Source of the DNA: a virus
DNA length: 64,000 bases
Direction: 5' to 3' (one strand)
IMG/VR virus record: IMGVR_UViG_3300045988_166693
Location: 1 to 64,000 of that record
In this document: piece after piece, positions 1,510 through 58,811 of the stretch
Position numbering within the stretch: the stretch's first letter is position 1
How the letters are laid out: each line of letters begins with the position of its first letter
Program-made: the position numbers and the translations under genes
The notes under the pieces: model-generated
The model's database searches: none
What the model was told of the DNA's origin: nothing
What the model saw: the letters and a program-made list of their open reading frames with translations, nothing else

Positions 1510-1550
1510 CTAAATTACTCTTACAACACCCGCTTTTGAAGGACAAAAAA
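1510..1550 (-). promoter_or_regulatory. Conserved phage promoter copy 1 (TTTTTTGTCCTTCA-N19-TAATTTAG)
   Basis: GTCCTTCA at 1537-1544 and the -7-like box at 1510-1517 (minus strand), with exactly 19 nt between them. Lies 48 nt upstream of the ATG at 1462. Confidence 0.6.
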
Positions 1551-1583
1551 CAGCTTTTTTTTGAACTCCTGAAAGGAAGTGCC

Positions 1584-1688
1584 AGCAACCTCTCAAGTGG
1601 TTTGCCGCAAACCTCTTGAGCGATATGCGGCAAACCTCTCGAGAGGTTTGCTGCATTTAGTTTGACAGGCCCTACAAGGTGTTCTGAG
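1584..1688. promoter_or_regulatory. Copy A of a ~105 nt repeated element with multiple GCAAACCTCTC / GAGAGGTTTGC sites
   Basis: Contains the perfect 22 nt palindrome GCAAACCTCTCGAGAGGTTTGC (1630-1651) plus two further direct half-sites. Near-identical copy at 44951-45056. Sits directly upstream (minus sense) of promoter copy 1. Confidence 0.7.
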
Positions 1689-1695
1689 AGGGGTG

Positions 1696-1986
1696 TCAGG
1701 AGGTGTAATTGCTGATCATCATCTGAAGGGTTTTTTCCCCGTTCCGGTCGGACGAAAGGAACCTCATAATTTCGGAATAAAGAGATTCCGAACATTCCCT
1801 TTTCACACTCAGAAAGAAGTCTTCTCCGATGATCCGCCGGACTTCACTTTCCACAACCGGCTCACTGCGGAAATCCTCATATTCTATGTCTACAATCACT
1901 TTCTTCCCTGAACGGAAAAAATTAACGGTGTGTGTCGCCTCGCCAAAATACTCGTTCAGTTTTCGGCGTATTTCTTTTATTTTCAT
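1696..1986 (-). CDS. Hypothetical 96-aa protein, paralog of 4653..4943
   Basis: Shares the blocks YFGE..H.V..F......V.I.DIEYEDFR.E..VE......I.GE......KRECS with the other 96-aa ORF. ATGA start/stop overlap with 1983..3023. Confidence 0.6.
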   Translation of the reverse strand: MKIKEIRRKLNEYFGEATHTVNFFRSGKKVIVDIEYEDFRSEPVVESEVRRIIGEDFFLSVKRECSESLYSEIMRFLSSDRNGEKTLQMMISNYTS

Positions 1987-3023
1987 ATATGCCCTCCTTT
2001 CTGGATGATGATGCGTGAAAAGAAGTCATATCCTTCGCGTGTGATGTAAGGTGTGTAATATTTCACTCCGGAACCGGTGGCACTGGAGTGTGCTGCCAGT
2101 ATCAGTCCTCTTTTTGCGCTTTCCTCTGAAGGGGCATTGTAGCACTCCGGAGCAGACAGAAGCCATCCTTCGCGACGCAGAAACTCAAAAACCCGGGCAG
2201 AGCGGACAACTATGCCATCTTCACGGCTTATCAGTCGGGCCATCTGTCGTACCAGCATCGCATCGCGGTGGTGCATCCTGATTTCGCTCGTAGTCAAACA
2301 GGGGATATCTTTAATAATGGGACGTGGTTTTATGGCCGTTTCCTGATCTGGAGTCATTGATGAAGGAATTATGTTTCCTTTTCTTCTTGAAACAAAAGTC
2401 TGCATCATTTCCTCCAGCCGCGAGATGCGCTGCTCAAACTGGCTTTGTGTAGTGCCTTCGGGCATGGTTTCTTCACGTTCAAGACGATATTTAAGGTAGG
2501 AAATGCGGTCTTTCTTATGCTGAAGCATGGAAATGGATTCGCAAAGCTCTTCTTCTATTTCAGTGAGAAGCCCGGAAAGATTGTCTTTCCTTCCCTGAGT
2601 GTTTTCAGTGCATGTGTAGTCAGTTTTTGTGGTTCCGGTGCTGAAAGACTTGCTAATTTGATAATGGAATACTTGCCGATAAATCTCAAATACAGCTCTT
2701 ACTTTACGCGCAATGAAAAATTCAAGACATGGGACGCTAAGGTAATAGTCGGAAGCAGGACGACCTCTTTTTGAATTTTCCGCATTTCTGCGTAAAATTT
2801 GATAATCAACTCCTTGAATGAATAAATCGCTTGTTGTAAGGGAGCGTACCGCTTCTTCTTTTCTGTTATATACAAGCATCCATACTTCATCAAGGTTTAC
2901 CGGAAATTCCTTGTCAGATTTTGACAATTCCAAAATTGCATTGAAATAGCTGCGAATTTCATTATCGCTGCTTTGCTTTGTAAGAATTTGATTTGTTGCC
3001 ATAATATTGAACGGTTTTGGCAT
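1983..3023 (-). CDS. Antirepressor-like protein (AntA-like N-terminus, KilAC-like C-terminus)
   Basis: N-terminus FPVNLDEVWMLVYNRKEEAVRSL...FIQGVDYQIL. C-terminus MLVRQMARLISREDGIVVRSARVFEFLRREGWLL...YNAPSEESAKRGL...ITREGYDFF resembles the KilAC domain. Confidence 0.6.
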   Translation of the reverse strand: MPKPFNIMATNQILTKQSSDNEIRSYFNAILELSKSDKEFPVNLDEVWMLVYNRKEEAVRSLTTSDLFIQGVDYQILRRNAENSKRGRPASDYYLSVPCLEFFIARKVRAVFEIYRQVFHYQISKSFSTGTTKTDYTCTENTQGRKDNLSGLLTEIEEELCESISMLQHKKDRISYLKYRLEREETMPEGTTQSQFEQRISRLEEMMQTFVSRRKGNIIPSSMTPDQETAIKPRPIIKDIPCLTTSEIRMHHRDAMLVRQMARLISREDGIVVRSARVFEFLRREGWLLSAPECYNAPSEESAKRGLILAAHSSATGSGVKYYTPYITREGYDFFSRIIIQKGGHI

Positions 3024-3155
3024 TATAGAACAGAAAAACGGCTGTTCATGGCCCGTCGTTCAACATACACATAGGCAGTCGGGAGTGCATTAACAGTTCC
3101 CACGGGATTAAACAGCCGATATATCTATATTGTATATATAGCAATGTAAGCAAAC

Positions 3156-6186: not shown

Positions 6187-8016
6187 TTAAGACGTCATCG
6201 GCATACCCACGCCTATCATGCGGCCCGATCCGTAATAGCGCACACCGATAACCAGCGTGTCGAATGCGTCGCTCAGGTCGGTACGGATACTTAAAGCGGT
6301 TTCAGGATCAGCCATTTCATCTGCCGTCAACCGTTTCTTTTCATCTCCCTTCTGTTTCTCAAAACCGTTGCGTCCTTCCTTCACACGCGCGTTCTCCATG
6401 GAGGCAATCAGATACTCGTTGTTCTCCTTGTTGATGCGAAGGAACGGGCGCTGCGTGCCGGCAAAACATCCGTTCAGGAACTCATACTTCTTGTTGTGGC
6501 TCATGGGCCGTCCCATGGGTACTTCGATGACGTTCCATCCGTGACTGCGAAGCACTTTCTTCACAATGTTGTAGAAACGGGTTTCTTCGTGGCGCTCACT
6601 GGCATAGGCGGCTCCCTGCTTGGCGGTGTCGTCGTAGTAGAAAATCACGTCGCGGCAGGTCAGGCGGTGCGGCTCGTAATACTTGCAGAACATCTTGCAA
6701 AGTCCCTCGATACGGGTGTTCTTTACGTTGGTCATGCTGTTGAGTATGCGCAGCACGCCGGTGTTGCTCCGGCTGTCGGTCTGCCCTATCACCAGACAGT
6801 TAATGTGTGCGTTGTAGTCGAAAGCGATGCGCAGCGGTTCTCCGGGCTTTATGTCGGTGTCCAGACAGCAGTCCTGTGCCTTGGAAAGCTCGTTCAGGTC
6901 GATGCTTTCCGACTCTACACGCAGGGTACGCCCGCCGTTGTATATCTGCGTAATGGTGCGTTTCTTATATTTCTGTGCGGCTTCCAGCTGCTCTTCGTCG
7001 TTACTGAGATAGCAGTGCACGTCAGGGTCGAAGTTTGCATAATAGCCGTCGTTGATTTCTTCCTTCTCGACGTTACGGATGGATATGTCGAACATGGTGG
7101 GGGTAAGTTCCTTTTGCATGGTGCGGATGAACTGTTCGCCCAGAATGTCGATGTTTTCTATGCTGGAAAAGGAAAAGTAGATGCTGGCCTGGCAGCGCAG
7201 CTTGTTCAGCTCACGCTGGTATTTGGGAGACTGCACGATTTCCGGACAGATTTGCGCCTCACGTATCATCTCCGCAATTTTGCGATTTATTTCCGGTGTC
7301 TGCTCTTCACGGCGCTTGCGAAGCCATGCCTGACGCTTGGTGAGCGGGGCATCGCTCACAAAGAATATACTCTTGTAGTACGGATTCAGGTTTTCATCAA
7401 ATCCGGGATGATTGGTGTTGATACCACGAAGCGTAGGAAGAATTTCGGCCTTAATCAGTCCTTCAGGCATAAAACGGCACTCGTCGCCAATAATGGAGCA
7501 CGAGTCCATACCGTTGGCGGCAGCCTTCACTCCGGTAGAAATCATGTAGTACACGAATCCATTCCAGAAGTGGATGCAGTTTTCCCACACCTTCGGCTTT
7601 ACGATGGGTTCCTTGAAATTGCATTTGGCCGGAGCATGTCCACGAAAGAAATGGACTCCCTCTTTCAGTCCGGTCATTCGCTCCAGCGAGTAAAGCGTTT
7701 TAGGAACGGTCTTCGTGAAAAGCTGCTTGATACTGTTACCTAAGAAAAGTCCGGTTCCGCGAGGCATGGACTGGATGCAACCGGCCATTTCGGGCGTAAT
7801 CAGTCCGTCGGTTTTACCTGTACCACGACCTGCTTCTACGGTGGTATTCCGGCATCGGTAGTTGTACACCGCACGCTGGGCCGGATTCATGTAGATGTAG
7901 TTGGCAGCAGTTTCCTGCTCCTCTGCTTCCTGCAGGCCCGTCAATGCCGAGGCGTGACACTGTGCTCGTCGAAGAGATTCTTCGCGGGCAGATTCATAGT
8001 CGTTTCGTCGTGCCAT
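6187..8016 (-). CDS. terL: Terminase large subunit
   Basis: 609 aa. Walker A VEAGRGTGKTDG, Walker B-like CSIIGDECRF. Size and position fit the packaging/head module. Confidence 0.85.
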   Translation of the reverse strand: MARRNDYESAREESLRRAQCHASALTGLQEAEEQETAANYIYMNPAQRAVYNYRCRNTTVEAGRGTGKTDGLITPEMAGCIQSMPRGTGLFLGNSIKQLFTKTVPKTLYSLERMTGLKEGVHFFRGHAPAKCNFKEPIVKPKVWENCIHFWNGFVYYMISTGVKAAANGMDSCSIIGDECRFMPEGLIKAEILPTLRGINTNHPGFDENLNPYYKSIFFVSDAPLTKRQAWLRKRREEQTPEINRKIAEMIREAQICPEIVQSPKYQRELNKLRCQASIYFSFSSIENIDILGEQFIRTMQKELTPTMFDISIRNVEKEEINDGYYANFDPDVHCYLSNDEEQLEAAQKYKKRTITQIYNGGRTLRVESESIDLNELSKAQDCCLDTDIKPGEPLRIAFDYNAHINCLVIGQTDSRSNTGVLRILNSMTNVKNTRIEGLCKMFCKYYEPHRLTCRDVIFYYDDTAKQGAAYASERHEETRFYNIVKKVLRSHGWNVIEVPMGRPMSHNKKYEFLNGCFAGTQRPFLRINKENNEYLIASMENARVKEGRNGFEKQKGDEKKRLTADEMADPETALSIRTDLSDAFDTLVIGVRYYGSGRMIGVGMPMTS

Positions 8017-8829: not shown

Positions 8830-9396
8830 TCATAAAACCTTTTTCGTATGCTCCTTCATCCGAAACATCTCCGCCACATTCTCATACTCTTCCGGAGAAG
8901 TGGTAAGTGTGAACATCTGCATGGCGTTACTGCGCTGGGTGTTCAGGCTTCCCTGAATAACCAGGCTGTGCGATTTGCTTTTCACCGTGACGCAGCGGAA
9001 ACCCACATTGTCCTCACACACCACCAGGCGGCCCGACTGGATAAAATCGCCTAACTGCGTGCGAATCTCCTGACGCTGGTTGAAGGTGGCTCCGGTGGAT
9101 GCCGGCTGCGCCACCAGTATCATTTTGCTGACATCAGCAAAATGGTTCGACGGATTGGTGGGATCGGGCTTCACACGCGAAAGAATGCGCCGGATGGTCT
9201 GTATGAGCTTCACATCGAGGCGCACCATGACAATGCCCATTTCACCGCCGGAACAGTAGCCGGACAGGGTACCCAGCAGATTGCACATGTCCCAGTCGGA
9301 GTAGCTGAAGAAGTTAGCAGCCGTATGCTTCTCGCTGCACTCGTCAATCATTCCTTCCAGCTGCTTGTGATAGCAGCATGGCTCAATTATTCTCAT
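8830..9396 (-). CDS. Hypothetical protein
   Basis: 188-aa ORF. 4-nt start/stop overlap with 9393..10595. Confidence 0.5.
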   Translation of the reverse strand: MRIIEPCCYHKQLEGMIDECSEKHTAANFFSYSDWDMCNLLGTLSGYCSGGEMGIVMVRLDVKLIQTIRRILSRVKPDPTNPSNHFADVSKMILVAQPASTGATFNQRQEIRTQLGDFIQSGRLVVCEDNVGFRCVTVKSKSHSLVIQGSLNTQRSNAMQMFTLTTSPEEYENVAEMFRMKEHTKKVL

Positions 9397-10595
9397 AACA
9401 CACCTCCTTTCATCTGACCTTCGGTCACACTTTCAGTAGGATCTACTTTCTTGCGCGGAGTTTCTGTAGCTTTTTTCGGTTCTTCTGATGCTTTTTGGCG
9501 GTTTTCCGTGGATTCGGCACATTTTTCCTCATTTACGGTACTATTTTCGGCTTTTTCAGCTTTCTTTTCTGGCTTTACTTCCGTTTCTTTCGGTTCCGCT
9601 TTATCGGTGGAAGCTGGCTTTGCTCCTGTCTGTACGGATGCAACCGGAGCGTTTACACCGGGAATGGAGATACCGGCTGCAGTAGCTACTTCTGCCGTTT
9701 TCTTAGGAAGGTTTTCTCCCCACTCCATCAGCTCCTCTATACGAAGGCGAAGCTGTTCCTTGTACTCCTCGGTAATCTTCACGTCGCTGCGGTTAATGTA
9801 TTTCTTGTTTCCCTCCACGCGGGCCTTGCGGCATACTTCCTGCTGGCGTACATCCTTCATGGCCTCTATCTCGGCACGGGTAAAGTCGCCAGGACGTTTC
9901 ATGCTGTCGGCTGTGGAAGTTTCAGGCTCGGTGTAGGTACCGTTAAGGGCTGCATCCACATTGGTCCAGAACGCGCGGATTTTCTGCTCGGAAGCGATTG
10001 CTTTCTGTGCCATGTCGGCACGTGCTTCGTCGCTTACGTTGGGATTTTCGGCCATTACCTCCAGCGTGCCGCGATACTCGGCCAGTTCCAGGTACATGGC
10101 GGAAAGTTCTTTCTCTCCCTTGTCGCGGAGAGATTTCGGCAGCTTATCCTTATAGAGTGCAAATTCTTTCGGTCTGCGTCCGTCCACTTCCTGCTCTTCG
10201 TACTGGCGTGCGGTCATGTTTCCTTCTTCATCGGGCGCACCGTCATCAGGAACAATCGCTTTGTAACGAACGGCGCCAACCGGACCGCGAGTGGCTTTCT
10301 TGGCCAGTCCGGATTTCTTCCGTACTTCCTGCAGGAACAGGTTCATCTTGTTGAGTGCACGGCGGGCTTCATAGCGCTGTACGTCGCGAAGAAAGTCTTT
10401 TGCCTTCACAATGGCCGACACCAGACGGCATCCTTCGTCGAAATCCTTCACGGGCACTTTCATCCAGCATTCGGCCAGCGCCAGCAGTTCCGGAAAAGTT
10501 TCATCTGTCCATCGTTTCACCCGGTCCAGATAATCTTTCTTTTCTTCCTCGTTCATGGTTCTGTAGTCTTTTAAGTATTCTTTTTCTGTAATCAT
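9393..10595 (-). CDS. Hypothetical, highly charged helical protein with low-complexity K/E/T-rich C-terminus
   Basis: 400-aa ORF preceded by promoter copy 2. No portal-like features recognised. Confidence 0.55.
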   Translation of the reverse strand: MITEKEYLKDYRTMNEEEKKDYLDRVKRWTDETFPELLALAECWMKVPVKDFDEGCRLVSAIVKAKDFLRDVQRYEARRALNKMNLFLQEVRKKSGLAKKATRGPVGAVRYKAIVPDDGAPDEEGNMTARQYEEQEVDGRRPKEFALYKDKLPKSLRDKGEKELSAMYLELAEYRGTLEVMAENPNVSDEARADMAQKAIASEQKIRAFWTNVDAALNGTYTEPETSTADSMKRPGDFTRAEIEAMKDVRQQEVCRKARVEGNKKYINRSDVKITEEYKEQLRLRIEELMEWGENLPKKTAEVATAAGISIPGVNAPVASVQTGAKPASTDKAEPKETEVKPEKKAEKAENSTVNEEKCAESTENRQKASEEPKKATETPRKKVDPTESVTEGQMKGGVL

Positions 10596-10622: not shown

Positions 10623-10665
10623 CAAAAGTAGGGAAAACCTATTTGCTGTTGAAGGACACAAAAAA
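10623..10665 (-). promoter_or_regulatory. Conserved phage promoter copy 2 (TTTTTTGTGTCCTTCA-N19-TACTTTTG)
   Basis: GTCCTTCA at 10650-10657, TACTTTTG at 10623-10630 (minus strand), with a 19 nt spacer. Confidence 0.65.
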
Positions 10666-10693
10666 GTCCGGCACCGATTAGCAAGTGCCGGAC
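10660..10693 (-). terminator. rho-independent terminator after 10742..11308, fused to promoter copy 2
   Basis: Perfect 9-bp stem GTCCGGCAC/GTGCCGGAC (10666-10674 / 10685-10693) followed on the minus strand by UUUUUU, which runs into the promoter motif. Confidence 0.75.
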
Positions 10694-46603: not shown

Positions 46604-46629
46604 TCTACTTACTACTCTATATATAAACA

Positions 46630-49145: not shown

Positions 49146-49988
49146 CTACTTGCTTTCGCTTTCGATAGTCGATGAACCTTCAGTTTGATGCTGATTATAC
49201 CATTCCCATCTGTAACCTCGTGCCGACTTTATCTTTACACCATTTGAATTTACATATCCCTTACAGCATTTGGATATGTCGACAGAAGCCTTGATATTTC
49301 CGCAGACGCTTAATGCAGCTTCGTTAAGAGACTGATATACTGCTATTATACGGCCTGTGTTTTTATCTATCTGGGCAACAGGTTTTCCGAATTTTTCACG
49401 AAATATGTTTTTCACTTCTTCTGTGTGGTGACGGCCGTAGAAAGGATTCTTTTCTCCGGTGCGCTGTCTGGATAGAACCGCCAGCCTTTCTATAAGTTCG
49501 CGGGAAGGTTTCCATCCGTAATTAGGATTTTCCTCTCCGAACTTCTTTCTGGTGTTCATTTTCATTTTCTTTATGCTTTCAGGAGTATGTCCTTTACCCA
49601 AAAGCGGATGACCTTTTTCCCTTATCCACTCTTTTGTGTTTCTGGAAATAATCATTCTTGACTCTTCCGGCATAAAGAATCCCACATTGCCTGCACCACC
49701 TTCATTCATGTTGTAACCATTCCGGAATGAATCAAAGTATGCGATAAAATACCTCTCCTTCTCATTGAGAACACGTTCCATTTCTTTTTCGTCCTGGAAT
49801 GTGCCTCTGAAAAGAACTTCATACGAAAAGTTTTCCGGTCCGTACTTCAATCTAGCCATATCCATACGATGACCTCCATAAGACTGTGACAATCTTCCGA
49901 ACTCCATTCTTCTTCTGTGCTCGTTGGATGTCTGTCCTATATAAACCTTTCCACCTGGAGACGTGTATTTGTAAACAATTCCTTCCAT
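49146..49988 (-). CDS. GIY-YIG homing endonuclease with NUMOD3-like repeats
   Basis: GIVYKYTSPGGKVYIGQT (GIY...YIG), the catalytic Arg/Glu/Asn region (YNMNEGG), and three H/G-rich repeats (GKGHTPESIKKM, NPNYGWKPS, GEKNPFYGRHHTEE). AT-rich relative to its flanks. Confidence 0.8.
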   Translation of the reverse strand: MEGIVYKYTSPGGKVYIGQTSNEHRRRMEFGRLSQSYGGHRMDMARLKYGPENFSYEVLFRGTFQDEKEMERVLNEKERYFIAYFDSFRNGYNMNEGGAGNVGFFMPEESRMIISRNTKEWIREKGHPLLGKGHTPESIKKMKMNTRKKFGEENPNYGWKPSRELIERLAVLSRQRTGEKNPFYGRHHTEEVKNIFREKFGKPVAQIDKNTGRIIAVYQSLNEAALSVCGNIKASVDISKCCKGYVNSNGVKIKSARGYRWEWYNQHQTEGSSTIESESK

Positions 49989-50648: not shown

Positions 50649-51227
50649 TTACCATTGCAGCAGGTTGTAGTTGAGAGTCACCGCCACGACAGCGCCCATC
50701 TTTCCGTCCGGTCCGACGCCGTAACCGACACTCAGTCCGATGCCCCACCGCTTCCTTTTCGGAGCAGGAGGCGTCACAACGCCGGTCTGAGTCTGCCGGT
50801 AGAACTCGGCCGAAACCAGCCGGGGACGGTAGCCGGAAACCACGATCCGGTAGTCGTCGGTGCGGTATTCCTTTTCGGTGATGGGGATCAGTACGTCGGC
50901 ACTGTCCGCCGCGATGGAGTCCTTCCGGACAGGGAACCGGCCTGTCTCCAGCGTATCGGGCCGGGAGACGGCAGCCGAATCTTCCGCACCGGAAGCCGGT
51001 ACGGAAGGTTTCTGCGGCCGCAATACGGGCAGTCGTGCGGTGTCGGTACCCGCCGGACGTTCGGACACGGGCGGAGCAACAGCCGTGTCGCGCAGTGTGT
51101 CCACCCTGACGGGCAGCCACACCGTGTCTGCGGTTCCCGAACCTGGGTCAGCGCATCCCCGGAAGAAAAGCGAGAAGAGGAGCGCCGCCGTCAGAACGCC
51201 TGCCAGTATCCACGGAAGCTGCTTCAT
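50649..51227 (-). CDS. Lipoprotein or secreted protein downstream of the endolysin (spanin-like by position)
   Basis: MKQLPWILAGVLTAALLFSLFFRGC signal/lipobox. 4-nt overlap with the amidase gene. Pro/Arg-rich middle and beta-like C-terminus. Confidence 0.5.
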   Translation of the reverse strand: MKQLPWILAGVLTAALLFSLFFRGCADPGSGTADTVWLPVRVDTLRDTAVAPPVSERPAGTDTARLPVLRPQKPSVPASGAEDSAAVSRPDTLETGRFPVRKDSIAADSADVLIPITEKEYRTDDYRIVVSGYRPRLVSAEFYRQTQTGVVTPPAPKRKRWGIGLSVGYGVGPDGKMGAVVAVTLNYNLLQW

Positions 51228-51796
51228 ACGCCCAGGTATTTGCAGATACCGTCCACATGGATGGCGGTAATCTTCTGTTTGCCTTCTTCAGACAGCAGGA
51301 AGTCCACGTCTTCCCGGTTGTCCTGAAACAGGTTCTCCGTGAGCACGGCCGGGCATGCGGTGTGCCTGAGGATGTAGAAACCGCTTTCCTTGTCGCTGTC
51401 GCCGTCGGAAGTGTCCTTGCGGATCTTCATACCCTTGAGCACCTGCGAAGCCTGCTCATACAGGCACTCGGCCAGGGTGTCGGCCCTGGTCTGACCTACA
51501 CTGGTCCATGCTTCCCAGCCGCGTCCGGTCATCCACTGCGAGCCGTTTCCGGCTGCATTCAGGTGGATGGAAACCAGAATGCTGTCCTTCACGCGGTTGG
51601 CGCGTGCGCAACGCTCCTGCAGGGAGATGTCTTTCTCTTCGGGGACGAGCAGCTGTGCGTCCAGACCTTTGGCCTTGAGCGCACTGACCACTCTTGCGGC
51701 TATTTCTCGGGCGTAGGCATACTCCCTCACCCGTCCGTCGGGAGACCGCTTCCCGGCGGTATCCGATCCGTGCCCGTTGTCAATCCAGATTTTCAT
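51224..51796 (-). CDS. N-acetylmuramoyl-L-alanine amidase (Amidase_3) endolysin
   Basis: IWIDNGHGSDTAGK, VSIHLNA and LTENLFQDN match the zinc-amidase motifs. Confidence 0.85.
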   Translation of the reverse strand: MKIWIDNGHGSDTAGKRSPDGRVREYAYAREIAARVVSALKAKGLDAQLLVPEEKDISLQERCARANRVKDSILVSIHLNAAGNGSQWMTGRGWEAWTSVGQTRADTLAECLYEQASQVLKGMKIRKDTSDGDSDKESGFYILRHTACPAVLTENLFQDNREDVDFLLSEEGKQKITAIHVDGICKYLGV

Positions 51797-53118: not shown

Positions 53119-53520
53119 TTATTCCTTCTTAGGTAGTGTCTGATCTTTTTTAAAAAGTTCCCCGATGGCTTTCACCAGATTATAGAACCCGCATCCGGAC
53201 AGTCCGGCAGCCACTCCGTAGATCAGCGCACCCCACCACGCATAAACCGACAGCAGCGGAGACACCTGAAGCGCCCATGCCACCATGCAGACTACAATAC
53301 CCACGGCACACGACATACCGATCTTTGCCAGACGGTTGCCGGCCACGGCAGGGATCAGCTTCGCGATCTGCGTCACGATGGCCGAAATAAGTGCTACGAT
53401 ACCGGTAAACGTACCCAGGTCGATTGCGAAATCACCTCCGGCGGTTTCAGTTCCGGAAACTTCCTGTGCGAAGAGTGCACAGGGCATCAGCATTGCAAAG
53501 AGTAAAATCATCTTTTTCAT
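53119..53520 (-). CDS. Multi-pass membrane protein, holin candidate
   Basis: 133 aa. Signal-like N-terminus plus three hydrophobic helices and a charged C-terminus (KKDQTLPKKE). Preceded by promoter copy 5. Confidence 0.5.
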   Translation of the reverse strand: MKKMILLFAMLMPCALFAQEVSGTETAGGDFAIDLGTFTGIVALISAIVTQIAKLIPAVAGNRLAKIGMSCAVGIVVCMVAWALQVSPLLSVYAWWGALIYGVAAGLSGCGFYNLVKAIGELFKKDQTLPKKE

Positions 53521-53563: not shown

Positions 53564-53606
53564 CAAAGTTAGGAATTGGGCATTTCAGAATGAAGGACAA
53601 AAAAAA
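53564..53606 (-). promoter_or_regulatory. Conserved phage promoter copy 5 (T8-GTCCTTCA-N19-TAACTTTG)
   Basis: GTCCTTCA at 53591-53598, TAACTTTG at 53564-53571 (minus strand), with a 19 nt spacer. Confidence 0.65.
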
Positions 53607-53630
53607 TAGCCCGATCTCACGACCAGGCTA
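53599..53630 (-). terminator. rho-independent terminator after 53661..53894, fused to promoter copy 5
   Basis: Minus-strand RNA UAGCCUGGUC-GUGA-GAUCGGGCUA (10 bp, two G.U), followed by U8. Confidence 0.75.
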
Positions 53631-53660: not shown

Positions 53661-53894
53661 TTACAAACACCCGATAATAATACCTACCGCATCAGCTATA
53701 AGGCCTTTCTTGTCGAATGTGCCTTTCTTCATCAGTTTATCCCAAACAACTTCCTTCCCCACTCCGGCCAATGCGGCAACTAATACCGCTACCCACAGAG
53801 GAAGGATCAGGTTAAGGACAACTACCATCACATTGCTCGCAATGACGTGCTTTAGTCCGTCATGTCCGAAATAATTGAATACTTTGCTTATCAT
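53661..53894 (-). CDS. Small membrane protein (holin/antiholin-like)
   Basis: 77 aa with two or three hydrophobic helices. Confidence 0.5.
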   Translation of the reverse strand: MISKVFNYFGHDGLKHVIASNVMVVVLNLILPLWVAVLVAALAGVGKEVVWDKLMKKGTFDKKGLIADAVGIIIGCL

Positions 53895-54601
53895 GCTTCT
53901 ACTTTTTGAACAAATCCACCACTTACAAGGTCTGCAAGGTTATGAGTTACCTTGTTGCCTGTATTTCTGATACACTTATATACTACTCCGCTTTGGGTGT
54001 AATACTTGCCTTCTTCCAGTATCATTCCCTGCCACATCGGATTTAACTCTTCGTTGTAAGGTATCGGGTCTTCCAATGTTCCTTCGTGATCTTCTACTAC
54101 TTCAACCCATAAAGACGACTGGTTCCCCGGAGACCAGTTAGATTGCGTAGTGTGATCCTGCATTACTTCGTAAAGTTTCCCGTTGTACTTATACTTTTCT
54201 CCCTGTTTTACCTGCACGCTGTCTGCCGACCATTCGGGATAAAACTCTTTAACCGACAATGCTTCCTTGTTGGTAAGATTGAGTGTGCCGATAATCTCAT
54301 TAACCATAGCGACATCTTTTTTCAACCGTTCCAAATCTGAATACTTCGGCATTACTCCACTTTCAGCAGTCCAAATCTCATCTTCCTGCACTTCTTCGCC
54401 TGTTCGTTTCCATATCTGCACGAAGCATACATCATACTCCCTGTAAACACAAAACTCCGCATCGGACGGCTGTTCCACTTCGCAAACAGGTTTATATCCT
54501 TGTGCGATAATTTCCTCTTCGGTAAGCTTTCCGCCCACCTGCACTCCTTTTTCCACTTCAAGCGTCTGAAGTGTTCCTTCTGTAATTTTTCCGTACTTCA
54601 T
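53891..54601 (-). CDS. Carbohydrate-binding-like protein, paralog of 59706..60350
   Basis: Start trimmed to the Met at 54601. Shares EDPIPYN...GKYY.Q.G..YKC.RNTG and LT..EAL..K..YP.W blocks with 59706..60350. Confidence 0.55.
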   Translation of the reverse strand: MKYGKITEGTLQTLEVEKGVQVGGKLTEEEIIAQGYKPVCEVEQPSDAEFCVYREYDVCFVQIWKRTGEEVQEDEIWTAESGVMPKYSDLERLKKDVAMVNEIIGTLNLTNKEALSVKEFYPEWSADSVQVKQGEKYKYNGKLYEVMQDHTTQSNWSPGNQSSLWVEVVEDHEGTLEDPIPYNEELNPMWQGMILEEGKYYTQSGVVYKCIRNTGNKVTHNLADLVSGGFVQKVEA

Positions 54602-54638
54602 ATTATTAATGTTTTTAAATATTGCTATCAATTGTCCG

Positions 54639-56111
54639 TTATGCTCGCATATATGCAGGCTCGCGGAGCTGTAGGGGGAACCTCCTTTTCGGATAGTACC
54701 TTGTCGGCGGTTTGAATATGGAAGCATAGTCGTTCAGGTTTAGATATGATGTCTTGTTTGGTTTATACTTGTCTTTCAGCACACAGACGAACCTGCCGTT
54801 CTTGTTGCGGAAATACAGCCATTCGGAGAATGTTTCCAGAGCTTTCTTTGCTATGCGCTTTTTGATGTTGAAGGACGCTGTTCCTTTCATCAGACCGAAA
54901 TAGCTGTTTATGCTTTGCATGACGTGTACGGCGTTATCGTACGACGGCATCCGGCTGTATTCTTCTATCGCTGTATGGAGGGCATGTACTGTACGGTTGG
55001 ATATGTAAATACGGTTCAGCTTTACTACCTTTCCGCAGAACTTTACTCCGTGTAAGGCCGGCTGTATGTAGAATTTATCGGGATGGACTTTGAGTTTCAA
55101 CCGCTCGGCTACTTTGATGAATACTTTCCGGGCATGGATTATTTCGGATGCGGTTTCTGCCACCACGCATATATCATCTACAAACCGTGTGTATCTAACT
55201 CCGGTTTTTATCATTTCCGCATCGGCTTCGGCCATGACGAGGTTTGCCAACAATTGGGAATAGAAGTTTCCAATCGGGAGTCCTTTTTCGGGCGGGAGTC
55301 CGAAAAGGCTTTTGTTGGGCGGTACTTTATCCCACATTTTTATATCGGAACGTCGCTCGCAGTCTGTGGCCGGATTATGCTGTATCAGGGTGTGAAGCAG
55401 GAGGAGTTTTTCCTCCTTATCGGGCTTGTCGTAGTACATATCGGCGTATTTCCGCAAGATACGGTATGCTGTTTCCTTGTCTATCGACATAAAGAAGCCT
55501 GATATGTCCATTGTGGCTACGAAGGCTTTCTTTGTGTAGCCGTCCGTTATATCACGGATGTTCCGCTGTATCTGCTCGATGGCTGTAGATGCGGAATGTC
55601 CGATACGGTTGCCGTGGCTTACATCACCATTGGCTTCATGGACTTTCTCGCATATCTCTCCAAGCATCGGGGCAACGTAGTGGTGCACGATGCGGTCGGT
55701 GTAGTTTGCTGCGAAAACTTCTCTATACACAGGGTAGTCGAGGACAAAGCAGATGCTTGTCTGTGGCTGGTATCCGTTGTCTATCCTGTTTATCAATTCA
55801 TAAATACGCGACAGGTTGAAATGGAACGATGCTGCTTCGAGCGATGCGTGCTTGTTTTTGTAACAGTCGCTTTCGGCAGCTATCCAGGCGGACACTTTTT
55901 CTGATAAATCGGAGGCGGGCACCACACTATAGGTGTTGTTCGTGTTGTTGTTGTTCAAGTTGCCATTGCCCATGTTCACATACCAGGCATTGTTGCCATT
56001 GTTGCGGACACAGCTCCAGACGTTGCCGCCCAGGACTTCTGCCCTGTTAATCGAAATAGCTTGCTCACTGCAAGCACAGGGACCTTTATCATTAAACAGT
56101 TCTGCCGACAT
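54639..56111 (-). CDS. DGR reverse transcriptase (the ORF as drawn includes the TR at its 5' end)
   Basis: DRIVHHYV, ATMDISGFFMSI, LPIGNFYSQLLANL (the DGR-typical SQ motif) and RFVDDICVV catalytic box. There is no ATG between the TR and the RT domain. Confidence 0.9.
   Translation of the reverse strand: MSAELFNDKGPCACSEQAISINRAEVLGGNVWSCVRNNGNNAWYVNMGNGNLNNNNTNNTYSVVPASDLSEKVSAWIAAESDCYKNKHASLEAASFHFNLSRIYELINRIDNGYQPQTSICFVLDYPVYREVFAANYTDRIVHHYVAPMLGEICEKVHEANGDVSHGNRIGHSASTAIEQIQRNIRDITDGYTKKAFVATMDISGFFMSIDKETAYRILRKYADMYYDKPDKEEKLLLLHTLIQHNPATDCERRSDIKMWDKVPPNKSLFGLPPEKGLPIGNFYSQLLANLVMAEADAEMIKTGVRYTRFVDDICVVAETASEIIHARKVFIKVAERLKLKVHPDKFYIQPALHGVKFCGKVVKLNRIYISNRTVHALHTAIEEYSRMPSYDNAVHVMQSINSYFGLMKGTASFNIKKRIAKKALETFSEWLYFRNKNGRFVCVLKDKYKPNKTSYLNLNDYASIFKPPTRYYPKRRFPLQLREPAYMRA
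55910..56037 (-). repeat. DGR template repeat (TR)
   Basis: 128 nt homologous to 56554-56681. It is rich in AAC codons on the coding (minus) strand. Confidence 0.9.
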
Positions 56112-56114
56112 AGT

Positions 56115-56468
56115 TCAAGACTTTTCGGTTCTGACATTCTTTATCCTCGCAAGCGAAGATAAAATGTTATCGCACAAAACGTCTATTACAGACGCTTTCT
56201 CTTTGCTGCATCCTCCAAGAGCCACTATCAAGTATATCCCAAACTGCAATTCGTATGTCAGTTCTGTAGCTCTTTTATAATAGTCCATTCCGCGGACCTG
56301 ACGCATAGCGTAACTGAAAAGCAATGCGCCTTGCTTCAGCATTGGGTCTATATATGTTCTGCTTATGACCTTATAAGCTTTGCTGTTGATTTCTATGAGA
56401 CAATTATTCAGGCGTATAACGTCCTGAATAATTGGTGCATCCAAATGTTTCCTCCCGGATCTGTTCAT
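56115..56468 (-). CDS. avd: DGR accessory variability determinant (Avd-like)
   Basis: 117-aa helical ORF in the canonical position between the target gene and TR-RT. Confidence 0.7.
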   Translation of the reverse strand: MNRSGRKHLDAPIIQDVIRLNNCLIEINSKAYKVISRTYIDPMLKQGALLFSYAMRQVRGMDYYKRATELTYELQFGIYLIVALGGCSKEKASVIDVLCDNILSSLARIKNVRTEKS

Positions 56469-56518
56469 TTCTATTGTCGCGTATTAAATGTTAATATATT
56501 TTAATGCAAAAGTTGATG

Positions 56519-56537
56519 AGCCGTGCTCCGCACGGCT
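56519..56537 (-). other. GC-rich hairpin just 3' of the VR and target stop codon
   Basis: AGCCGTG(C)-TCC-(G)CACGGCT, 7-8 bp, 9 nt past the stop codon and 17 nt past the VR end. Confidence 0.6.
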
Positions 56538-56545
56538 GAGATAAA

Positions 56546-57964
56546 TCAAAAAGCGGAGGCGGGCACCACACTATAGGTGCTGCCCGTGCTGCTGCTGGTC
56601 AAGGTGCCACCGCCCATGCCCACACACCAGGCACTGCCGCCACCGTTGCGGACACAGCTCCAGACGTTGCCGCCCAGGACTGCAGGAACTCCCCATTTCT
56701 CATAACTGTTAAGATAGTTTATTAATCCTGAAATTATGCTTTTGTTTGTCCAGTATGGATATAATTCTTTCTCTCCGGCCATATATTTATTTTCAAGAGA
56801 TTTAATGTAATACACAGCATGAGAGTCCGCCATATTCCAGTCATAATTTGTACTGGAATTGCCGGGTCTGCTTATGTATGGGGTAATGATATACCAATAA
56901 CCGTCAACGGTAATTGCTTCTGCTCCTTTTGCTCCCGGAGAAAGAAGAGGTCGTTCGGCAGAATTTACTCCGGTGTCGTTCATGTTTACACCGTTTGTTT
57001 TCTGCTGTTCGTACAGCCATTCAGCATATTCAGGTTTGAAATAGTATGCGTTGTTTACCGAATGCCTGTTATTTGTATTGTACATTGCTTTCAAGCCTGT
57101 ATTCTGGCCGTTTACGAAGAAAAACATATCTTCGCCTGCCTGAGCCTGTGTACCTGACGAATTCAGGATTTCCAGATCGGTTATTGTGCCTTCTGCTTCA
57201 GAAGATGTTATGCCGCTACAGATAGCAAACCTGTGGCGAAGCCATTCATTCTGTACATACATGGCTTCAAGACGTTCGGCGTAATTATCCGCTATCATAG
57301 CATTTACATTGCCGCAATTCTTTTCCATTATCCAGCGTTGCCTGGTATTGCCGCTGTAAAGTTCAAGCTTATCGTCTTCAGTTACGGTTACGCTCCAGTC
57401 GGCTGCAAAGTGACTTCCTACGGTATGTGTGCCAAGGTTTTCATCTACTGTCCCATGATAGTCAGTACCTTCGCGTACGCCGGTCATCTGGTCGTATTCA
57501 TAAATTGAGTGTTGCATAGCGTTTGATGCTTTGTTTGTGGTACCGGATGTGGCGTAATATTCTCCCTTCCACGGCCAATAAAGAATGGCTCTGATACCGT
57601 TACATTCCAAAGAAAAACCTACAGGAGGAGCAATGAGTTCATTGTCAAAGCCATTTGCCATGCTTCGGTCGTTCCATTCTTTTACTGTGTAATGTTTCAG
57701 GTCTGCATCTACAATCTTGATATGGTCGTTTGTGGCTATCGCTGCAGTCTTTCCTTCACTCGTGGTGATAATGGTCGAACGTACCGGCAGTATCAGCATT
57801 TGCGATTCAAGGGCGTATTCATCCACTGTCGGAATGGCTGCTATTTTAGCCGGGTATTCGGAAAGGATTTCTCCGACATTTTCCACTCCTTTTGCCTCAA
57901 TAGCTGCCTTAATCGCAGCTTTACTGGCTAATATCTTGTTTAGTTTGTCTGCTGTTGTTCCCAT
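56546..57964 (-). CDS. DGR target protein (tail-fibre-associated, C-type-lectin-like variable C-terminus)
   Basis: 472 aa. C-terminus VLGGNVWSCVRNGGGSAWCVGMGGGTLTSSSTGSTYSVVPASAF is the VR counterpart of the TR-encoded VLGGNVWSCVRNNGNNAWYVNMGNGNLNNNNTNNTYSVVPAS. Confidence 0.85.
   Translation of the reverse strand: MGTTADKLNKILASKAAIKAAIEAKGVENVGEILSEYPAKIAAIPTVDEYALESQMLILPVRSTIITTSEGKTAAIATNDHIKIVDADLKHYTVKEWNDRSMANGFDNELIAPPVGFSLECNGIRAILYWPWKGEYYATSGTTNKASNAMQHSIYEYDQMTGVREGTDYHGTVDENLGTHTVGSHFAADWSVTVTEDDKLELYSGNTRQRWIMEKNCGNVNAMIADNYAERLEAMYVQNEWLRHRFAICSGITSSEAEGTITDLEILNSSGTQAQAGEDMFFFVNGQNTGLKAMYNTNNRHSVNNAYYFKPEYAEWLYEQQKTNGVNMNDTGVNSAERPLLSPGAKGAEAITVDGYWYIITPYISRPGNSSTNYDWNMADSHAVYYIKSLENKYMAGEKELYPYWTNKSIISGLINYLNSYEKWGVPAVLGGNVWSCVRNGGGSAWCVGMGGGTLTSSSTGSTYSVVPASAF
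56554..56681 (-). repeat. DGR variable repeat (VR)
   Basis: 18 mismatches to the TR, confined to 56580-56644, all at TR adenines on the coding strand. Confidence 0.9.
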
Positions 57965-58215
57965 TATATAACTTCTCCGTTTATATTGTCAAGGATTGAG
58001 TTGATATCTCCTATCTGGTCGATTGTCGCATACTTTTTATCTGCTTGTAAACCCGTGATAAAGCCGCTTACATCGGGAATATCACTGGGTTTGGCCAGCT
58101 GATCTGTCTGTATATATTTTTGCGTACCATTATCGGAAACATAAATTCGCTCCGTGCCTTTTATATCTTCCAGTTTAGTCTGTACCTGACTTAATTTTGT
58201 TCCTGTAATTGCCAT
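57964..58215 (-). CDS. Small tail-fibre-associated protein
   Basis: 83 aa. 1-nt start/stop overlap with the DGR target gene. Confidence 0.5.
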   Translation of the reverse strand: MAITGTKLSQVQTKLEDIKGTERIYVSDNGTQKYIQTDQLAKPSDIPDVSGFITGLQADKKYATIDQIGDINSILDNINGEVI

Positions 58216-58269
58216 AATATTATCCTATTTTATATATCTCCAATACTTTTCATATCCAGGCATGGATTT

Positions 58270-58476
58270 CTACAGCTCTGACTCCAGCCTAAAGTACGTG
58301 CCGTCCTCCATCAGAAATAGACTGCCATCCTCCATAAGAAGCGCGTCCGAAATCTGAGGGATATCTTCTCCTCCAGAATCTTCACACAAATTACATGTGC
58401 AAATGTCTTCAGGTATTCTTATTTCAGCAATGCGTATGGCTCCTATATCAGTTTGCGCCAAATGGATTCCTTTCAT
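58270..58476 (-). CDS. Hypothetical small protein
   Basis: 68-aa ORF with a 4-nt overlap with the upstream gene. Confidence 0.45.
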   Translation of the reverse strand: MKGIHLAQTDIGAIRIAEIRIPEDICTCNLCEDSGGEDIPQISDALLMEDGSLFLMEDGTYFRLESEL

Positions 58477-58754
58477 TGACCAGCCTCCCTTATAGTCGCC
58501 CTAACAGGCTTGTTTGTCACTGAAATCTTTATATTTTTGGGATATACTGCATGACAGAAATCAGCATCAATCACTTCTCCCCAGCTTGACTGCTGGTAGC
58601 ATTTCTTGTACCTTCCCTCGTTACTTCCACGCTGGTATAAGATAAAAGAACCAACCTCTTCCATTTCAATATGCAGATTATAATCTGCATTTACCTGAAC
58701 TTCCGCCGAAAACATATTTTCATCGGGATTGAACACTAATTGTTTTTCTTCCAT
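58473..58754 (-). CDS. Hypothetical protein
   Basis: Start trimmed to the Met at 58754 (MEEKQLVF...), because the longer ORF would run through promoter copy 6. Confidence 0.5.
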   Translation of the reverse strand: MEEKQLVFNPDENMFSAEVQVNADYNLHIEMEEVGSFILYQRGSNEGRYKKCYQQSSWGEVIDADFCHAVYPKNIKISVTNKPVRATIREAGQ

Positions 58755-58768
58755 ATCTTTTTTTATTG

Positions 58769-58811
58769 TAAAGATAAAGATTAACGGAACATATTTGAAG
58801 GACAAAAAAAA
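58769..58811 (-). promoter_or_regulatory. Conserved phage promoter copy 6 (T8-GTCCTTCA-N19-TATCTTTA)
   Basis: GTCCTTCA at 58796-58803, the -7-like box at 58769-58776 (minus strand), with a 19 nt spacer. Confidence 0.6.

Follow-up and report, generated by a model that had tools for sequence, protein, structure and literature searches.

A phage-specific promoter-like element with a fixed 19-nt spacing precedes late-type operons of an uncultured gut phage

Six operons in the phage DNA analysed here (a stretch of 64,000 nt, called the window in the following) are each headed by the same bipartite element, in which GTCCTTCA is followed after exactly 19 nt by a box of the type TAnnTT. We put the probability at roughly 0.55 that these elements are late promoters of a gut Bacteroidota phage, served by the host sigma-A together with a factor that reads the box and is most likely phage-encoded.

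The window is part of a genome of roughly 100 kb, about 40% of which lies outside it. The source is an uncultured tailed phage of the gut, the host of which is probably a member of the Bacteroidota. A megablast search of GenBank with 40 kb of the window matched no close relative; the best match of TerL showed 30% identity, and the majority of its matches were phages of Bacteroidota. Rfam and tRNA scans of the window returned nothing. In literature searches, nothing was found on promoter classes of Bacteroides phages, and no description of a temporal promoter class or a phage transcription factor in tailed Bacteroides phages; among the papers listed for the 8-mer, all were unrelated and of primer type, and promoters are not mentioned in the description of new gut phage families by Benler 2021.

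Results

The 8-mer GTCCTTCA occurs 14 times in the window, compared with 2.3 expected copies, and seven of these lie on the minus strand. TAnnTT stands exactly 19 nt downstream in six of the seven, a combination restricted to the minus strand and expected 0.00 times according to 100 shuffles. When TAnnTT was sought 10-30 nt after any copy of GTCCTTCA in the window, 19 nt was the sole spacing found. Chance or a composition artefact is ruled out by the copy counts, the shuffles and this single spacing; the random spacing that the first-pass annotation had named as contrary evidence was not seen in the window. The six copies are exact and discrete, because a relaxed search of the window (up to two mismatches in the box, spacing of 17-21 nt) added no further convincing ones. 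The seventh minus-strand copy (54869-54876) is located within the reverse-transcriptase ORF and lacks a -7 box. All seven plus-strand copies lie within minus-strand genes; the sequence xTG-AAG-GAC, present in five cases, is a codon effect.

All six sites are intergenic, on the coding strand, and 14-47 nt before an ATG (counted, here and below, from the -7 box to the start codon); they were present where the first-pass annotation had placed them, with the -7 boxes as it had written them. Copy 1 (58769-58811, minus strand like all others) consists of T8, GTCCTTCA (58796-58803), 19 nt and the -7 box TATCTTTA (58769-58776), 14 nt before the first gene (58473-58755) of the DGR cassette. Copy 2 (53564-53606) combines T8, GTCCTTCA (53591-53598) and, 19 nt further on, TAACTTTG (53564-53571), and lies 43 nt ahead of the lysis cassette, composed of genes for a 133-aa membrane protein (53119-53520), proteins of 210 aa and 191 aa, and an amidase (51224-51796). 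The same -7 box (44910-44917) recurs in copy 3 (44910-44951), 19 nt after T7 and GTCCTTCA (44937-44944) and 20 nt upstream of the tape measure gene (39145-44889) with its tail genes. Copy 4 (14866-14907) reads CTTTTGT, GTCCTTCA (14893-14900), 19 nt, TAATTTCG (14866-14873), and stands 29 nt before the genes for the protease (13262-14836) and a 417-aa presumed major capsid protein (11965-13218), an assignment made from gene order, as the sole Pfam match is Flg_new_2. In copy 5 (10623-10665), TTTTTTGT and GTCCTTCA (10650-10657) are followed after 19 nt by TACTTTTG (10623-10630), 27 nt before the 400-aa gene (9393-10595) of the head/terminase operon, the downstream genes of which include TerL (6187-8016). 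Copy 6 (1510-1550), with T6, GTCCTTCA (1537-1544), 19 nt and TAATTTAG (1510-1517), precedes by 47 nt the gene for an HU-HIG DNA-binding protein (983-1462).

The -7 box equals TAnnTTTG at three of the six sites and deviates by one mismatch, at position 7 or 8, at the other three. At none of them does TTTG, the -33 element, occur 18-21 nt upstream of the -7 box; the nearest TTTG, formed by the T-run and the G that follows it, is 26 nt away. According to the Bacteroides numbering, GTCCTTCA extends from about -41 to -34 with its centre near -37, and its last four bases (TTCA) stand at the place expected for the -33 TTTG, or for the first bases of a canonical -35 hexamer with a 17-bp spacer. The box is non-palindromic, single and asymmetric, and the leaders behind it are A-rich and carry no Shine-Dalgarno sequence.

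A T-tract precedes the box at all six sites and, as described before, is interrupted in two copies, namely by GT at the 14900 and 10657 sites. At four sites this T-run is the tail of an intrinsic (hairpin) terminator; no such hairpin was seen at the 14900 and 1544 sites. The hairpin TAGCCTGGTTGTGAGACCGGGCTA (58812-58835, minus strand, as are the following three) has a T8 tail that is the T-run of copy 1, another (53607-53630) abuts copy 2, a long hairpin of -29.9 kcal/mol (44955-45014) is followed by the T-run of copy 3, and the T-tail of GTCCGGCAC...GTGCCGGAC (10664-10697, -22.8 kcal/mol) abuts copy 5. Copies 1 and 2 have a 40-nt module of terminator, T-run and box in common at 95% identity (the second at 53591-53630). 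The DGR cassette lies between these two modules and is found at a different position in relatives. A 109-nt repeat, spanning 44951-45059 and including the long hairpin at copy 3, precedes copies 3 and 6. The other four copies have only the box and the -7 element in common, their spacers and flanks being unrelated.

For the comparison with related phages, 49 relatives were fetched by the protease protein, not by the motif, and the upstream region was then checked. TTTT(G/A)T-GTCCTTCA-N19-TAATTTCG was kept in all 49, so that the non-consensus -7 box of copy 4 is itself conserved. In L123-125, phages with a protease of about 37-42% amino acid identity, both boxes persist and spacer and flanks have diverged, and the promoters of the 400-aa and HU-HIG genes likewise keep their boxes while the surroundings diverge. 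Copy 2 is conserved in 19 IMG/VR loci upstream of an orthologous 132-aa gene, and copy 3 in 25 IMG/VR loci as well as in a Bacteroidaceae MAG contig, the TMP of which matched only over a 144-aa segment with 25.7% identity. Copy 1 has its counterpart in the homologous DGR cassette of L067 (GTCCTTCT-N19-TATTTTTG), copy 5 in orthologous sites of L123 (GTCCTTCG), L124 and L125 (GTCCTTTC), and copy 6 before the orthologous HU-HIG gene of L124 (GTCCTTCA-N19-TATCTTTG). In those parts of the genome that the window does not cover, relatives possess at least four additional classes of sites, located before 87/577-aa, 341-aa, 333/1346-aa and 104-aa genes; they flank a block of small genes that has the opposite orientation and lacks the box. 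Since relatives keep both the box and the -7 box, we regard the element as a real promoter class. This corroborates the view in the first-pass annotation of a bipartite, promoter-like element in which the -7 box is of the Bacteroidota host type and the 8-mer at the -33 position is far more conserved than a housekeeping -33 element.

In a sister clade with a homologous head module, the box reads [G/T]CCCTTGA with the same 19-nt spacing; a -7-like box follows 16 of 18 such boxes, in 15 cases at exactly 19 nt. The sister-clade box GCCCTTGAC carries TTG/TTGAC at the normal -33 position. This variant box had escaped the first-pass annotation, as had the nature of the T-run as a terminator tail and the extension of the regulon beyond the window.

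A looser form of the motif was found at >117 loci in IMG/VR, compared with five matches of a stricter form (T-run, box and TAACTTTG) in 185,579 bacterial species genomes (596 Gb), a scan that speaks for the strict form and not for sites lacking a T-run. Three of the five matches look like phage DNA, namely those located on a pair of contigs from a single Bacteroidaceae MAG and on a 4.6-kb contig binned to Ruminococcus (L122). The motif had been proposed to be phage-specific, and these numbers agree with that.

The box is absent from the early region (34451-19900, roughly 15 kb), the plus-strand moron island, the IS element and an sRNA-like unit. TAnnTTTG does occur in the moron island and the sRNA-like unit, where no box accompanies it and TTTG is sometimes present at -33, and two promoter classes therefore coexist in this genome; the early operon shows only near-matches to TAnnTTTG. 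TTTG-N18-21-TAnnTTTG is present at three places in the window only, none of them at the six box sites. As a contrast case, an ordinary Bacteroides-type promoter, TTTG-N19-TACCTTTG (59020-59050, minus strand), stands at the head of a unit of about 125 nt that is bounded by terminators and situated just upstream of copy 1, and TTTG-N20-TATCTTTG (866-897, minus strand) precedes a DUF5053 gene (365-868). The operons behind the box are of late type (head, terminase, tail, lysis, DGR/fibre), and the early operon, the morons and the sRNA-like unit lack it, as expected for the membership in a late regulon that had been suggested.

Domains of sigma-70 region 2, MotA or AsiA were detected neither in the ~74 ORFs of the window nor in 34 further families of relatives. 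This search relied on Pfam and PHROG, and ORFans and the genome part outside the window leave room for a non-homologous analogue; the Pfam scan of the 34 families outside the window yielded only Cro/CI HTH, ParA, integrase, methylase, Tad2 and DnaA_N. A candidate regulator cassette of three conserved genes is situated at the head of the early operon (33158-34451, minus strand) and encodes proteins of 126 aa (34071-34451), 206 aa (Cys-rich, LuxR/GerE-type, 33448-34068) and 97 aa (33158-33451). The 206-aa gene recurs together with a ~125-137-aa gene directly upstream in L123-125 and L232, and a ~92-105-aa ORF is adjacent downstream of it in L123, L124, L126, L232 and L233. L232 and L233, short contigs with distant regulator homologues, contain no late promoters.

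The 206-aa protein is the only conserved activator-like protein found and is confined in IMG/VR to this clade and one uninformative distant match (L231). It gave only sub-threshold matches to Sigma70_r4 and none to Sigma70_r2, and its AlphaFold model (pLDDT 90) matched only DNA-binding domains of NarL/GerE/DosR, with no sigma-2 domain. Its recognition helix varies completely (SNIDNIRKR / GTVKKQREQ / RTTEKLGSE) among the window and the homologues P0050, P0055 and P0057, the phages of which all share GTCCTTC(A/G) with the window. Reading of the box by this LuxR-type HTH was rejected because the helix varies while the box does not; the invariant Cys-rich segment might offer another surface for reading DNA. 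The early proteins of 97 aa and 126 aa are conserved, lack annotation and do not match AsiA; for the 126-aa protein, the homologue search retrieved one sequence and the AlphaFold model reached a pLDDT of 51, too low for use. Divergent from the early operon, a 436-aa protein (34590-35900, plus strand) is a repressor-like candidate with one Cro/CI-type HTH in Pfam (residues 340-382), and four repeats of CN.F.IS...F suggest up to four HTH domains. It shows ~25% identity between phages sharing the box. The 436-aa and 126-aa proteins were both rejected as readers, being poorly conserved (about 25-33% identity) and having no PDB relatives. Of the earlier proposal, the late regulon is supported by the late-type operons. 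Its control by a dedicated phage regulator or modified polymerase is a hypothesis only: these searches gave no sigma, MotA or AsiA homologue, the LuxR-type recognition helix varies, and host RNA polymerase alone may recognise the box.

Discussion

Each of the proposed late promoters is built from a T-rich tract, GTCCTTC(A) as the invariant box, a free stretch of exactly 19 nt and a sigma-A-type -7 element TAnnTT(T)(G). The -7 element would be recognised by host RNA polymerase with its primary sigma, and the box by a factor replacing or redirecting the contact of sigma region 4. That factor, most likely phage-encoded, would be made from the early operon, so that the head, terminase, tail, lysis, DGR and HU-like operons would switch on together late in infection. 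The terminators directly before four of the six boxes may insulate the late operons, in which case each would depend on its own box promoter. That the box is non-palindromic and keeps a constant distance to the -7 element points to recognition within one polymerase complex. As relatives keep this promoter, it probably marks the late-gene switch. A slowly evolving host reader would also fit the conservation of the box at about 37-43% protein identity, and because the sister-clade box has TTG at -33, host sigma-A could contribute.

Middle promoters of T4 combine the host -10 element with a phage MotA box that replaces the -35 element; the MotA box, www-TGCTTtA, stands 12 +/- 1 nt from the -10 element and is centred at -30 (PMC2988021). 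Similarities to the promoters described here include a retained host downstream element, a non-palindromic phage box in place of -35/-33 at a fixed distance (19 nt at all six sites and at 15 of the 18 sister-clade boxes), an A/T-rich 5' side with a CTT core (here TTTT-GTCCTTCA), and many copies per genome that define a temporal class, the timing presumably being late in our case. In contrast to T4, no MotA or AsiA homologue was detected here, the box ends 19 nt before the downstream element with its centre near -37, the host sigma is the atypical sigma-A of Bacteroidota, the box is far more invariant than MotA boxes, and the operons are of late type (structural, lysis) rather than middle. Housekeeping promoters of Bacteroidota (sigma-ABfr) consist of TTTG at -33 and TAnnTTTG at -7 (consensus as cited in PMC7366714). 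The -7 element, its distance to the start codon and the A-rich leaders without a Shine-Dalgarno sequence are common to both, whereas the -33 TTTG is replaced here by an invariant 7-8-mer after a T-tract, and one exact spacing stands against a variable one of 19-21 nt. As in our phage, several late operons share one common site in the temperate-phage systems Mu C/Mor and P2 Ogr/P4 Delta, where a single small, earlier-made phage activator acts at a site upstream of or overlapping the -35 element. Those sites are dyad-symmetric and bound by dimers, whereas the box described here is asymmetric, and no homologue of the activators was found.

A further reading, which we advance tentatively and at somewhat below even odds, is that the box, which differs by clade (GTCCTTCA, GCCCTTGA or TCCCTTGA) and stands where sigma region 4 would bind, is read by a phage protein that has no relationship to MotA/AsiA, an undescribed redirection of the Bacteroidota sigma-A polymerase used by this clade and at least one sister clade. 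The reader could then be found in the 126/206/97-aa cassette, either as the invariant Cys-rich module of the 206-aa protein or as one of the other members. If true, sigma appropriation would have a functional analogue in another phylum.

It is unlikely, in our estimation, that the six sites are simply strong host promoters at which the sigma-A polymerase, with no phage factor, takes the T-tract for an UP-like element and GTCCTTCA for an extended -33 region, the phage retaining an optimal sequence much as T4 early promoters retain an extended consensus. Such promoters would explain the canonical host -7 element (exact at three of six sites) and the position of the box exactly where sigma region 4 binds and where GCCCTTGAC of the sister clade has TTG/TTGAC; however, the box has a C at the consensus G of -33, and TTTG is missing 18-21 nt upstream of all six -7 boxes. 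A conserved host reader would suit the deep conservation of the box, and no phage sigma or activator was identified in the window or the relatives' families, but the same genome has box-less TAnnTTTG promoters and hence two classes, the box is confined to late-type operons, and bacterial genomes are essentially devoid of the strict motif. Moreover, the global TSS map of B. thetaiotaomicron gave only TTTG/TAnnTTTG and the near-palindromic PM2 (PMC7366714), and conserved -7 deviations at positions 7-8, such as TAATTTCG, are expected for assisted promoters.

An alternative sigma encoded by the phage, either outside the window or in a form too diverged to be detected, could read both the box and the -7-like element, which we consider improbable. 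A bipartite motif with fixed spacing is a signature of sigma recognition, variation of the box between clades would be expected if a phage protein co-evolved with it, the last two -7 positions are relaxed relative to the host consensus, and many unannotated ORFs and the remaining 40% of the genome could harbour the gene. Yet Sigma70_r2 was matched nowhere in the searches, the protein with the sub-threshold Sigma70_r4 match models as NarL/GerE only and has no sigma-2 domain, and the downstream element is of the host sigma-A type and not a new -10.

That the element is mainly a recombination boundary, a terminator-promoter cassette spread by duplication whose sequence identity reflects recent copying and not selection for a reader, is very improbable: the 40-nt modules around the relocated DGR cassette and the 109-nt repeat speak for it, but the other four copies share only box and -7 element, orthologous sites keep both at about 40% protein identity in diverged surroundings, and a shuffling of modules does not conflict with promoter function, which it probably exploits. 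In T4-type phages, PeSL modules likewise place a stem-loop and a promoter at cassette borders and are tied to cassette mobility, as the 40-nt repeat of terminator and box brackets a DGR cassette that lies elsewhere in relatives; PeSLs, however, carry early host-type promoters, whereas the promoter here is of a phage-specific late type and the stem-loop is common to only two of six copies. Equally hard to credit is the box as an operator through which a repressor such as the 436-aa HTH protein silences late operons in a lysogen or plasmid-prophage. Relatives do encode an integrase and ParA, and the early operon has this HTH protein as a conserved neighbour. Yet an operator would not have to stand exactly 19 nt from the -7 box, the box is a single site without symmetry, the HTH proteins of phages that share it have only about 25% identity, and once the box was occupied, no other -33 element would be available.

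The preferred reading, late promoters with a box-reading factor, narrows the search for this factor to a handful of conserved early genes and offers a short, testable DNA element with clade variants as natural specificity swaps. Should the promoters be infection-dependent, they would provide tightly off, phage-inducible parts for Bacteroides engineering, and the annotation of operons and timing in gut phage genomes would improve. For a group of uncultured phages, a candidate late regulon can be delimited by the motif, which over 100 loci in IMG/VR carry. Phage takeover of transcription is barely studied in the Bacteroidota, a phylum in which the primary sigma factor and its promoters differ from the E. 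coli paradigm.

Six exact copies of a probable promoter in the window

The 8-mer GTCCTTCA (the box) occurs 14 times in the window compared with 2.3 expected, and GTCCTTCA-N19-TAnnTT was found six times, always on the minus strand, and in none of 100 shuffles. The first-pass annotation had reported six sites and their -7 boxes, and both the coordinates and the -7 sequences were confirmed as given there. Its fixed spacing was also borne out: among all window copies of GTCCTTCA, a TAnnTT within 10-30 nt downstream was present only at 19 nt. A search allowing up to two mismatches and spacings of 17-21 yielded no credible degenerate copy in the window, so that the six copies are exact and discrete. 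All six are intergenic, on the coding strand, with an ATG 14-47 nt downstream. They precede the first gene of the DGR cassette (58769-58811), the gene of a 133-aa membrane protein heading the lysis cassette (53564-53606), the tape measure gene (44910-44951), the protease gene (14866-14907), a 400-aa gene heading the terminase operon (10623-10665) and the HU-HIG gene (1510-1550). A seventh minus-strand GTCCTTCA is located within the reverse-transcriptase ORF and has no -7 box. The seven plus-strand copies all lie within minus-strand genes, and a codon effect accounts for five of these, which read xTG-AAG-GAC.

The element is a tailed phage with almost all window genes on the minus strand, including those for the tape measure protein (39145-44889), an S49-type head maturation protease (13262-14836), the large terminase (6187-8016), an amidase (51224-51796), the HU-HIG protein (983-1462) and a primase-like protein of 1103 aa. 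An early-looking operon starts at 34451 and runs via the primase through approximately 30 small genes to ~19900; no box was found in it. TAnnTTTG elements lacking the box are present at 866-897 before a DUF5053 gene, at 59020-59050 before an sRNA-like unit of ~125 nt, near 45187 before a plus-strand lipoprotein island, and before the insertion element and a few other genes, and two of these sites carry a proper TTTG at -33. Together with the box promoters, they define two promoter classes in this genome, split by gene function.

Several further features of the window were recorded. Between the fibre genes and the DGR cassette (58885-59050, minus strand), the hairpin terminator GGAGGAGACGAGAAATCGTCTCC and a T-run lie ~125 nt downstream of an ordinary TTTG-N19-TACCTTTG promoter; no ORF is present, which makes the unit a candidate small RNA. 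The island at 45171-47037 (plus strand), which looks like a moron, comprises three ORFs whose N-termini are lipoprotein-like, and has a TACTTTTG promoter of its own near 45187; it lies between the tail-side genes and the tape-measure promoter, where relatives carry the DGR cassette. Two selfish insertions are likely, namely 17862-19022, encoding a 386-aa transposase (phrog_506) that is weakly similar to an IS605 OrfB/TnpB-like gene of the distant relative L123 and has back-to-back TATATTTG promoters of its own, and 49146-49988, encoding a NUMOD3 protein of 280 aa that resembles a homing endonuclease. A 12-nt tandem repeat of ~11 GCACACCAGCGG-like units is present at the window edge (10-147). 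Adjacent paralogous genes of 188 and 180 aa (10742-11308 and 11340-11882) downstream of the presumed capsid gene have a 300-nt repeat of 89% identity in common; only one copy of the pair is present in the distant subclade L123-125 and in the sister clade.

Conservation among related phages

No close GenBank phage was found for the window; its terminase is at most 30% identical to GenBank entries, the matches being mostly Bacteroidota phages. A scan of IMG/VR for TTTTGTCCTTCA-N19-TAnnTTT returned at least 117 loci, many of them on 55-120 kb contigs with several loci apiece, and most of those listed were 70-95% identical to parts of the window. Among the listed loci, at least 25 belong to the tape measure and at least 19 to a 132-aa lysis gene, while the sites of families absent from the window precede an 87-aa followed by a 577-aa gene (at least 18), a 341-aa gene (at least 20), a 333-aa followed by a 1346-aa gene (at least 21) and a 104-aa gene (at least 4). 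Relatives with these outside families have box operons on either side of an oppositely oriented, box-less block of ~20 small genes. Two contigs of 99 and 109 kb each carry a 99% identical regulator gene, and from their lengths the window is estimated to cover ~60% of the genome. The regulon has at least ten members. In relatives L104, L106, L089 and others, a ParA-type ATPase, a tyrosine integrase, a Tad2-like anti-Thoeris protein and a DNA methylase are encoded outside the window-homologous region, which hints at a temperate or plasmid-prophage lifestyle.

Conservation was assessed on loci retrieved via the protease protein, i.e. not chosen by the motif. TTTT(G/A)T-GTCCTTCA-N19-TAATTTCG was present upstream of the protease in all 49 related loci with upstream sequence (protease 65-96% identical). 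In L123-125, three phages found via distant homologues of a 206-aa protein, the proteases are only ~37-42% identical to that of the window; their protease promoters have kept the box and the same non-consensus -7 box, with spacer and flanks unalignable, and the promoters of the 400-aa and HU-HIG genes have likewise kept both boxes in diverged surroundings. Box position 8 is variable (G at both L123 sites, T in the DGR promoter of relative L067, C at one L125 site), which leaves GTCCTTC as the constrained core. The 19-nt spacer of the protease promoter in L123:5992, L124:3959 and L125:6032 holds the perfect palindrome AACCGCGAAGCGGTT, of which the window has a looser form, CCGCTTTGCGCG; it may be an extra operator in this promoter alone.

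The box types across the phage groups were GTCCTTCA, GTCCTTCG, GCCCTTGA and TCCCTTGA. The sister clade comprises IMG/VR contigs 3300031998_000346, 3300021431_000086, 3300021254_000029 and 3300038345_000118 (L178-L181); relative to the window, their proteases reach 36-44% identity and their homologue of its 417-aa presumed capsid protein ~30%. GTCCTTCA promoters are absent from these four contigs, and the box is instead [G/T]CCCTTGA (GCCCTTGA in L179-181, TCCCTTGA in L178). A -7-like box of the form TAnnTT(T/G)(G/C) lies downstream of 16 of the 18 boxes, in 15 cases at exactly 19 nt; there are 3-5 sites per 9-14 kb locus, preceding the protease, the presumed capsid gene and other genes. The same architecture with a variant box implies that the architecture predates the box sequence. 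Common to the boxes of both clades are CCTT and A at position 8.

Proposed mechanism and recognition by the host polymerase

The exact register of the asymmetric box with the -7 element implies that both are bound in one polymerase complex, and the box sites very probably function as promoters. The box is located where sigma region 4 would touch DNA, does not match the host -33 element and is confined to late-type, terminator-insulated operons. In the model with the best support, the host polymerase with sigma-A would bind the -7 element, and a factor made earlier would recognise the box, replacing or joining sigma region 4. To this full model with a phage-encoded reader we assign a probability of roughly 0.55.

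That the host polymerase recognises the box promoters alone appears unlikely to us. In terms of geometry, the box ends with four bases that fall on positions 1-4 of a canonical -35 hexamer with a 17-bp spacer; at this position, the sister box reads TTGAC and the window clade TTCA, with C replacing G of the Bacteroides -33 TTTG. The sister-clade sequence GCCCTTGAC includes this sigma-70-like TTGAC. Global start-site mapping in B. thetaiotaomicron described only TTTG/TAnnTTTG and a near-palindromic second motif (PMC7366714). Among 185,579 bacterial species, each represented by one genome, the strict form TTTTGTCCTTCA-N19-TAACTTTG, T-run included, matched only five times. Two matches lie in one Bacteroidaceae MAG and one in a 4.6-kb contig (L122) binned to a Ruminococcus MAG; all three sites have a short A-rich leader downstream, and a distant tape measure match adjoins the site in the Bacteroidaceae contig L118. 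The remaining matches, in Faucicola and Pirellulales, look like chance. In this strict form the motif is phage-specific; rare host sites that have no T-run would escape the scan.

Search for the reader

No match to sigma region 2, MotA or AsiA was obtained with Pfam and PHROG among ~74 window ORFs, nor in 34 further gene families of relatives; that a phage sigma factor escaped detection and directs these promoters is quite improbable. At the head of the early operon, a conserved cassette of three genes (126, 206 and 97 aa) is divergent from the gene of a 436-aa protein. The 206-aa protein (33448-34068, minus strand) belongs to a family of 63 clusters, and all members with examined context are from the phage group of the window; a gene of ~125-137 aa is directly 5' wherever upstream sequence is present, and an ORF of ~92-105 aa is usually 3'-adjacent. 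Its N-terminal domain is novel and its C-terminal HTH is of the LuxR/GerE type; it also has an invariant Cys-rich segment (C-x5-C ... CC-N-P), and its structure model (pLDDT 90) matches exclusively the DNA-binding domains of NarL, DosR and GerE. The recognition helix as box reader is argued against by its being wholly different among phages with the same box. The Cys-rich segment, with invariant C114, R117, C120, N123, G124, C137, N138 and P139, is a possible DNA-reading surface, and zinc or an iron-sulfur cluster is a possible ligand of the protein.

Between subclades, identity is only 25-33% for the 126-aa and 436-aa proteins. The latter (34590-35900, plus strand) has one Pfam Cro/CI-type HTH (residues 340-382); the motif CN.F.IS...F occurs four times, which suggests four HTH units in tandem. 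Judged from the sequence, coiled-coil segments appear to lie between and after these units. Beside the homologous gene in L123 and L124, an intergenic region of ~800 bp contains many TTGCGG(A/G)A(A/T)TT repeats that may serve as operators or iterons.

Terminators and possible module exchange

Strong hairpin terminators (58812-58835, 53607-53630, 44955-45014 and 10664-10697) have the T-run as their tail at four of the six sites, so that the late operons would be shielded from upstream read-through and each would depend on its own box promoter. A T-run is also present at 14900 and 1544, where a good hairpin is lacking, and L118 and L122 contain a back-to-back divergent box pair with one T-run per box; the T-run is therefore more than a terminator tail. 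Just upstream of the HU-HIG and tape-measure promoters (1584-1692 and 44951-45059, minus strand), a non-coding stretch of 109 nt is directly repeated at 84% identity. It includes the perfect palindrome GCAAACCTCTCGAGAGGTTTGC along with another hairpin, and more than 20 IMG/VR loci conserve it at ~88%. Rfam gave no match; the repeat could act as a terminator cluster or an operator, or specify a small RNA.

The DGR and lysis promoters have a 40-nt module of terminator, T-run and box in common (58796-58835 and 53591-53630, 95% identity), and these modules flank the DGR cassette (53891-58755) on both sides. The cassette comprises a 94-aa gene, an 83-aa gene, a 472-aa target with VR 56550-56681, a 117-aa gene, the reverse transcriptase (54639-56111) with TR 55906-56037 and a 278-aa CBM_5_12 protein. 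L067 and other relatives carry it at another place, with the tape-measure promoter on one side and the 46.8-49 kb block on the other, and there it has a box promoter of its own, GTCCTTCT-N19-TATTTTTG; the cassette therefore looks like a mobile module. T4-type phages carry promoter-stem-loops, which the terminator-promoter modules resemble. These modules appear to double as recombination joints; that the box element is purely a recombination module is very improbable. Equally slight is the chance that the box is a repressor operator.

Implications

Devices that pair a phage-specific box with a downstream element of the host are already known. In the middle promoters of T4, the MotA box substitutes for the -35 element and the host -10 is retained (PMC2988021), and the same logic is proposed here, with the box in place of -33 beside a host-type -7. 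No description of the box promoter was found in the searched literature. In this instance the known factors have no detectable homologue, and the phylum has an atypical sigma. Conservation of the box promoters extends over a clade of uncultured, gut-associated phages for which IMG/VR has more than 100 motif loci, and a sister clade uses a variant box.
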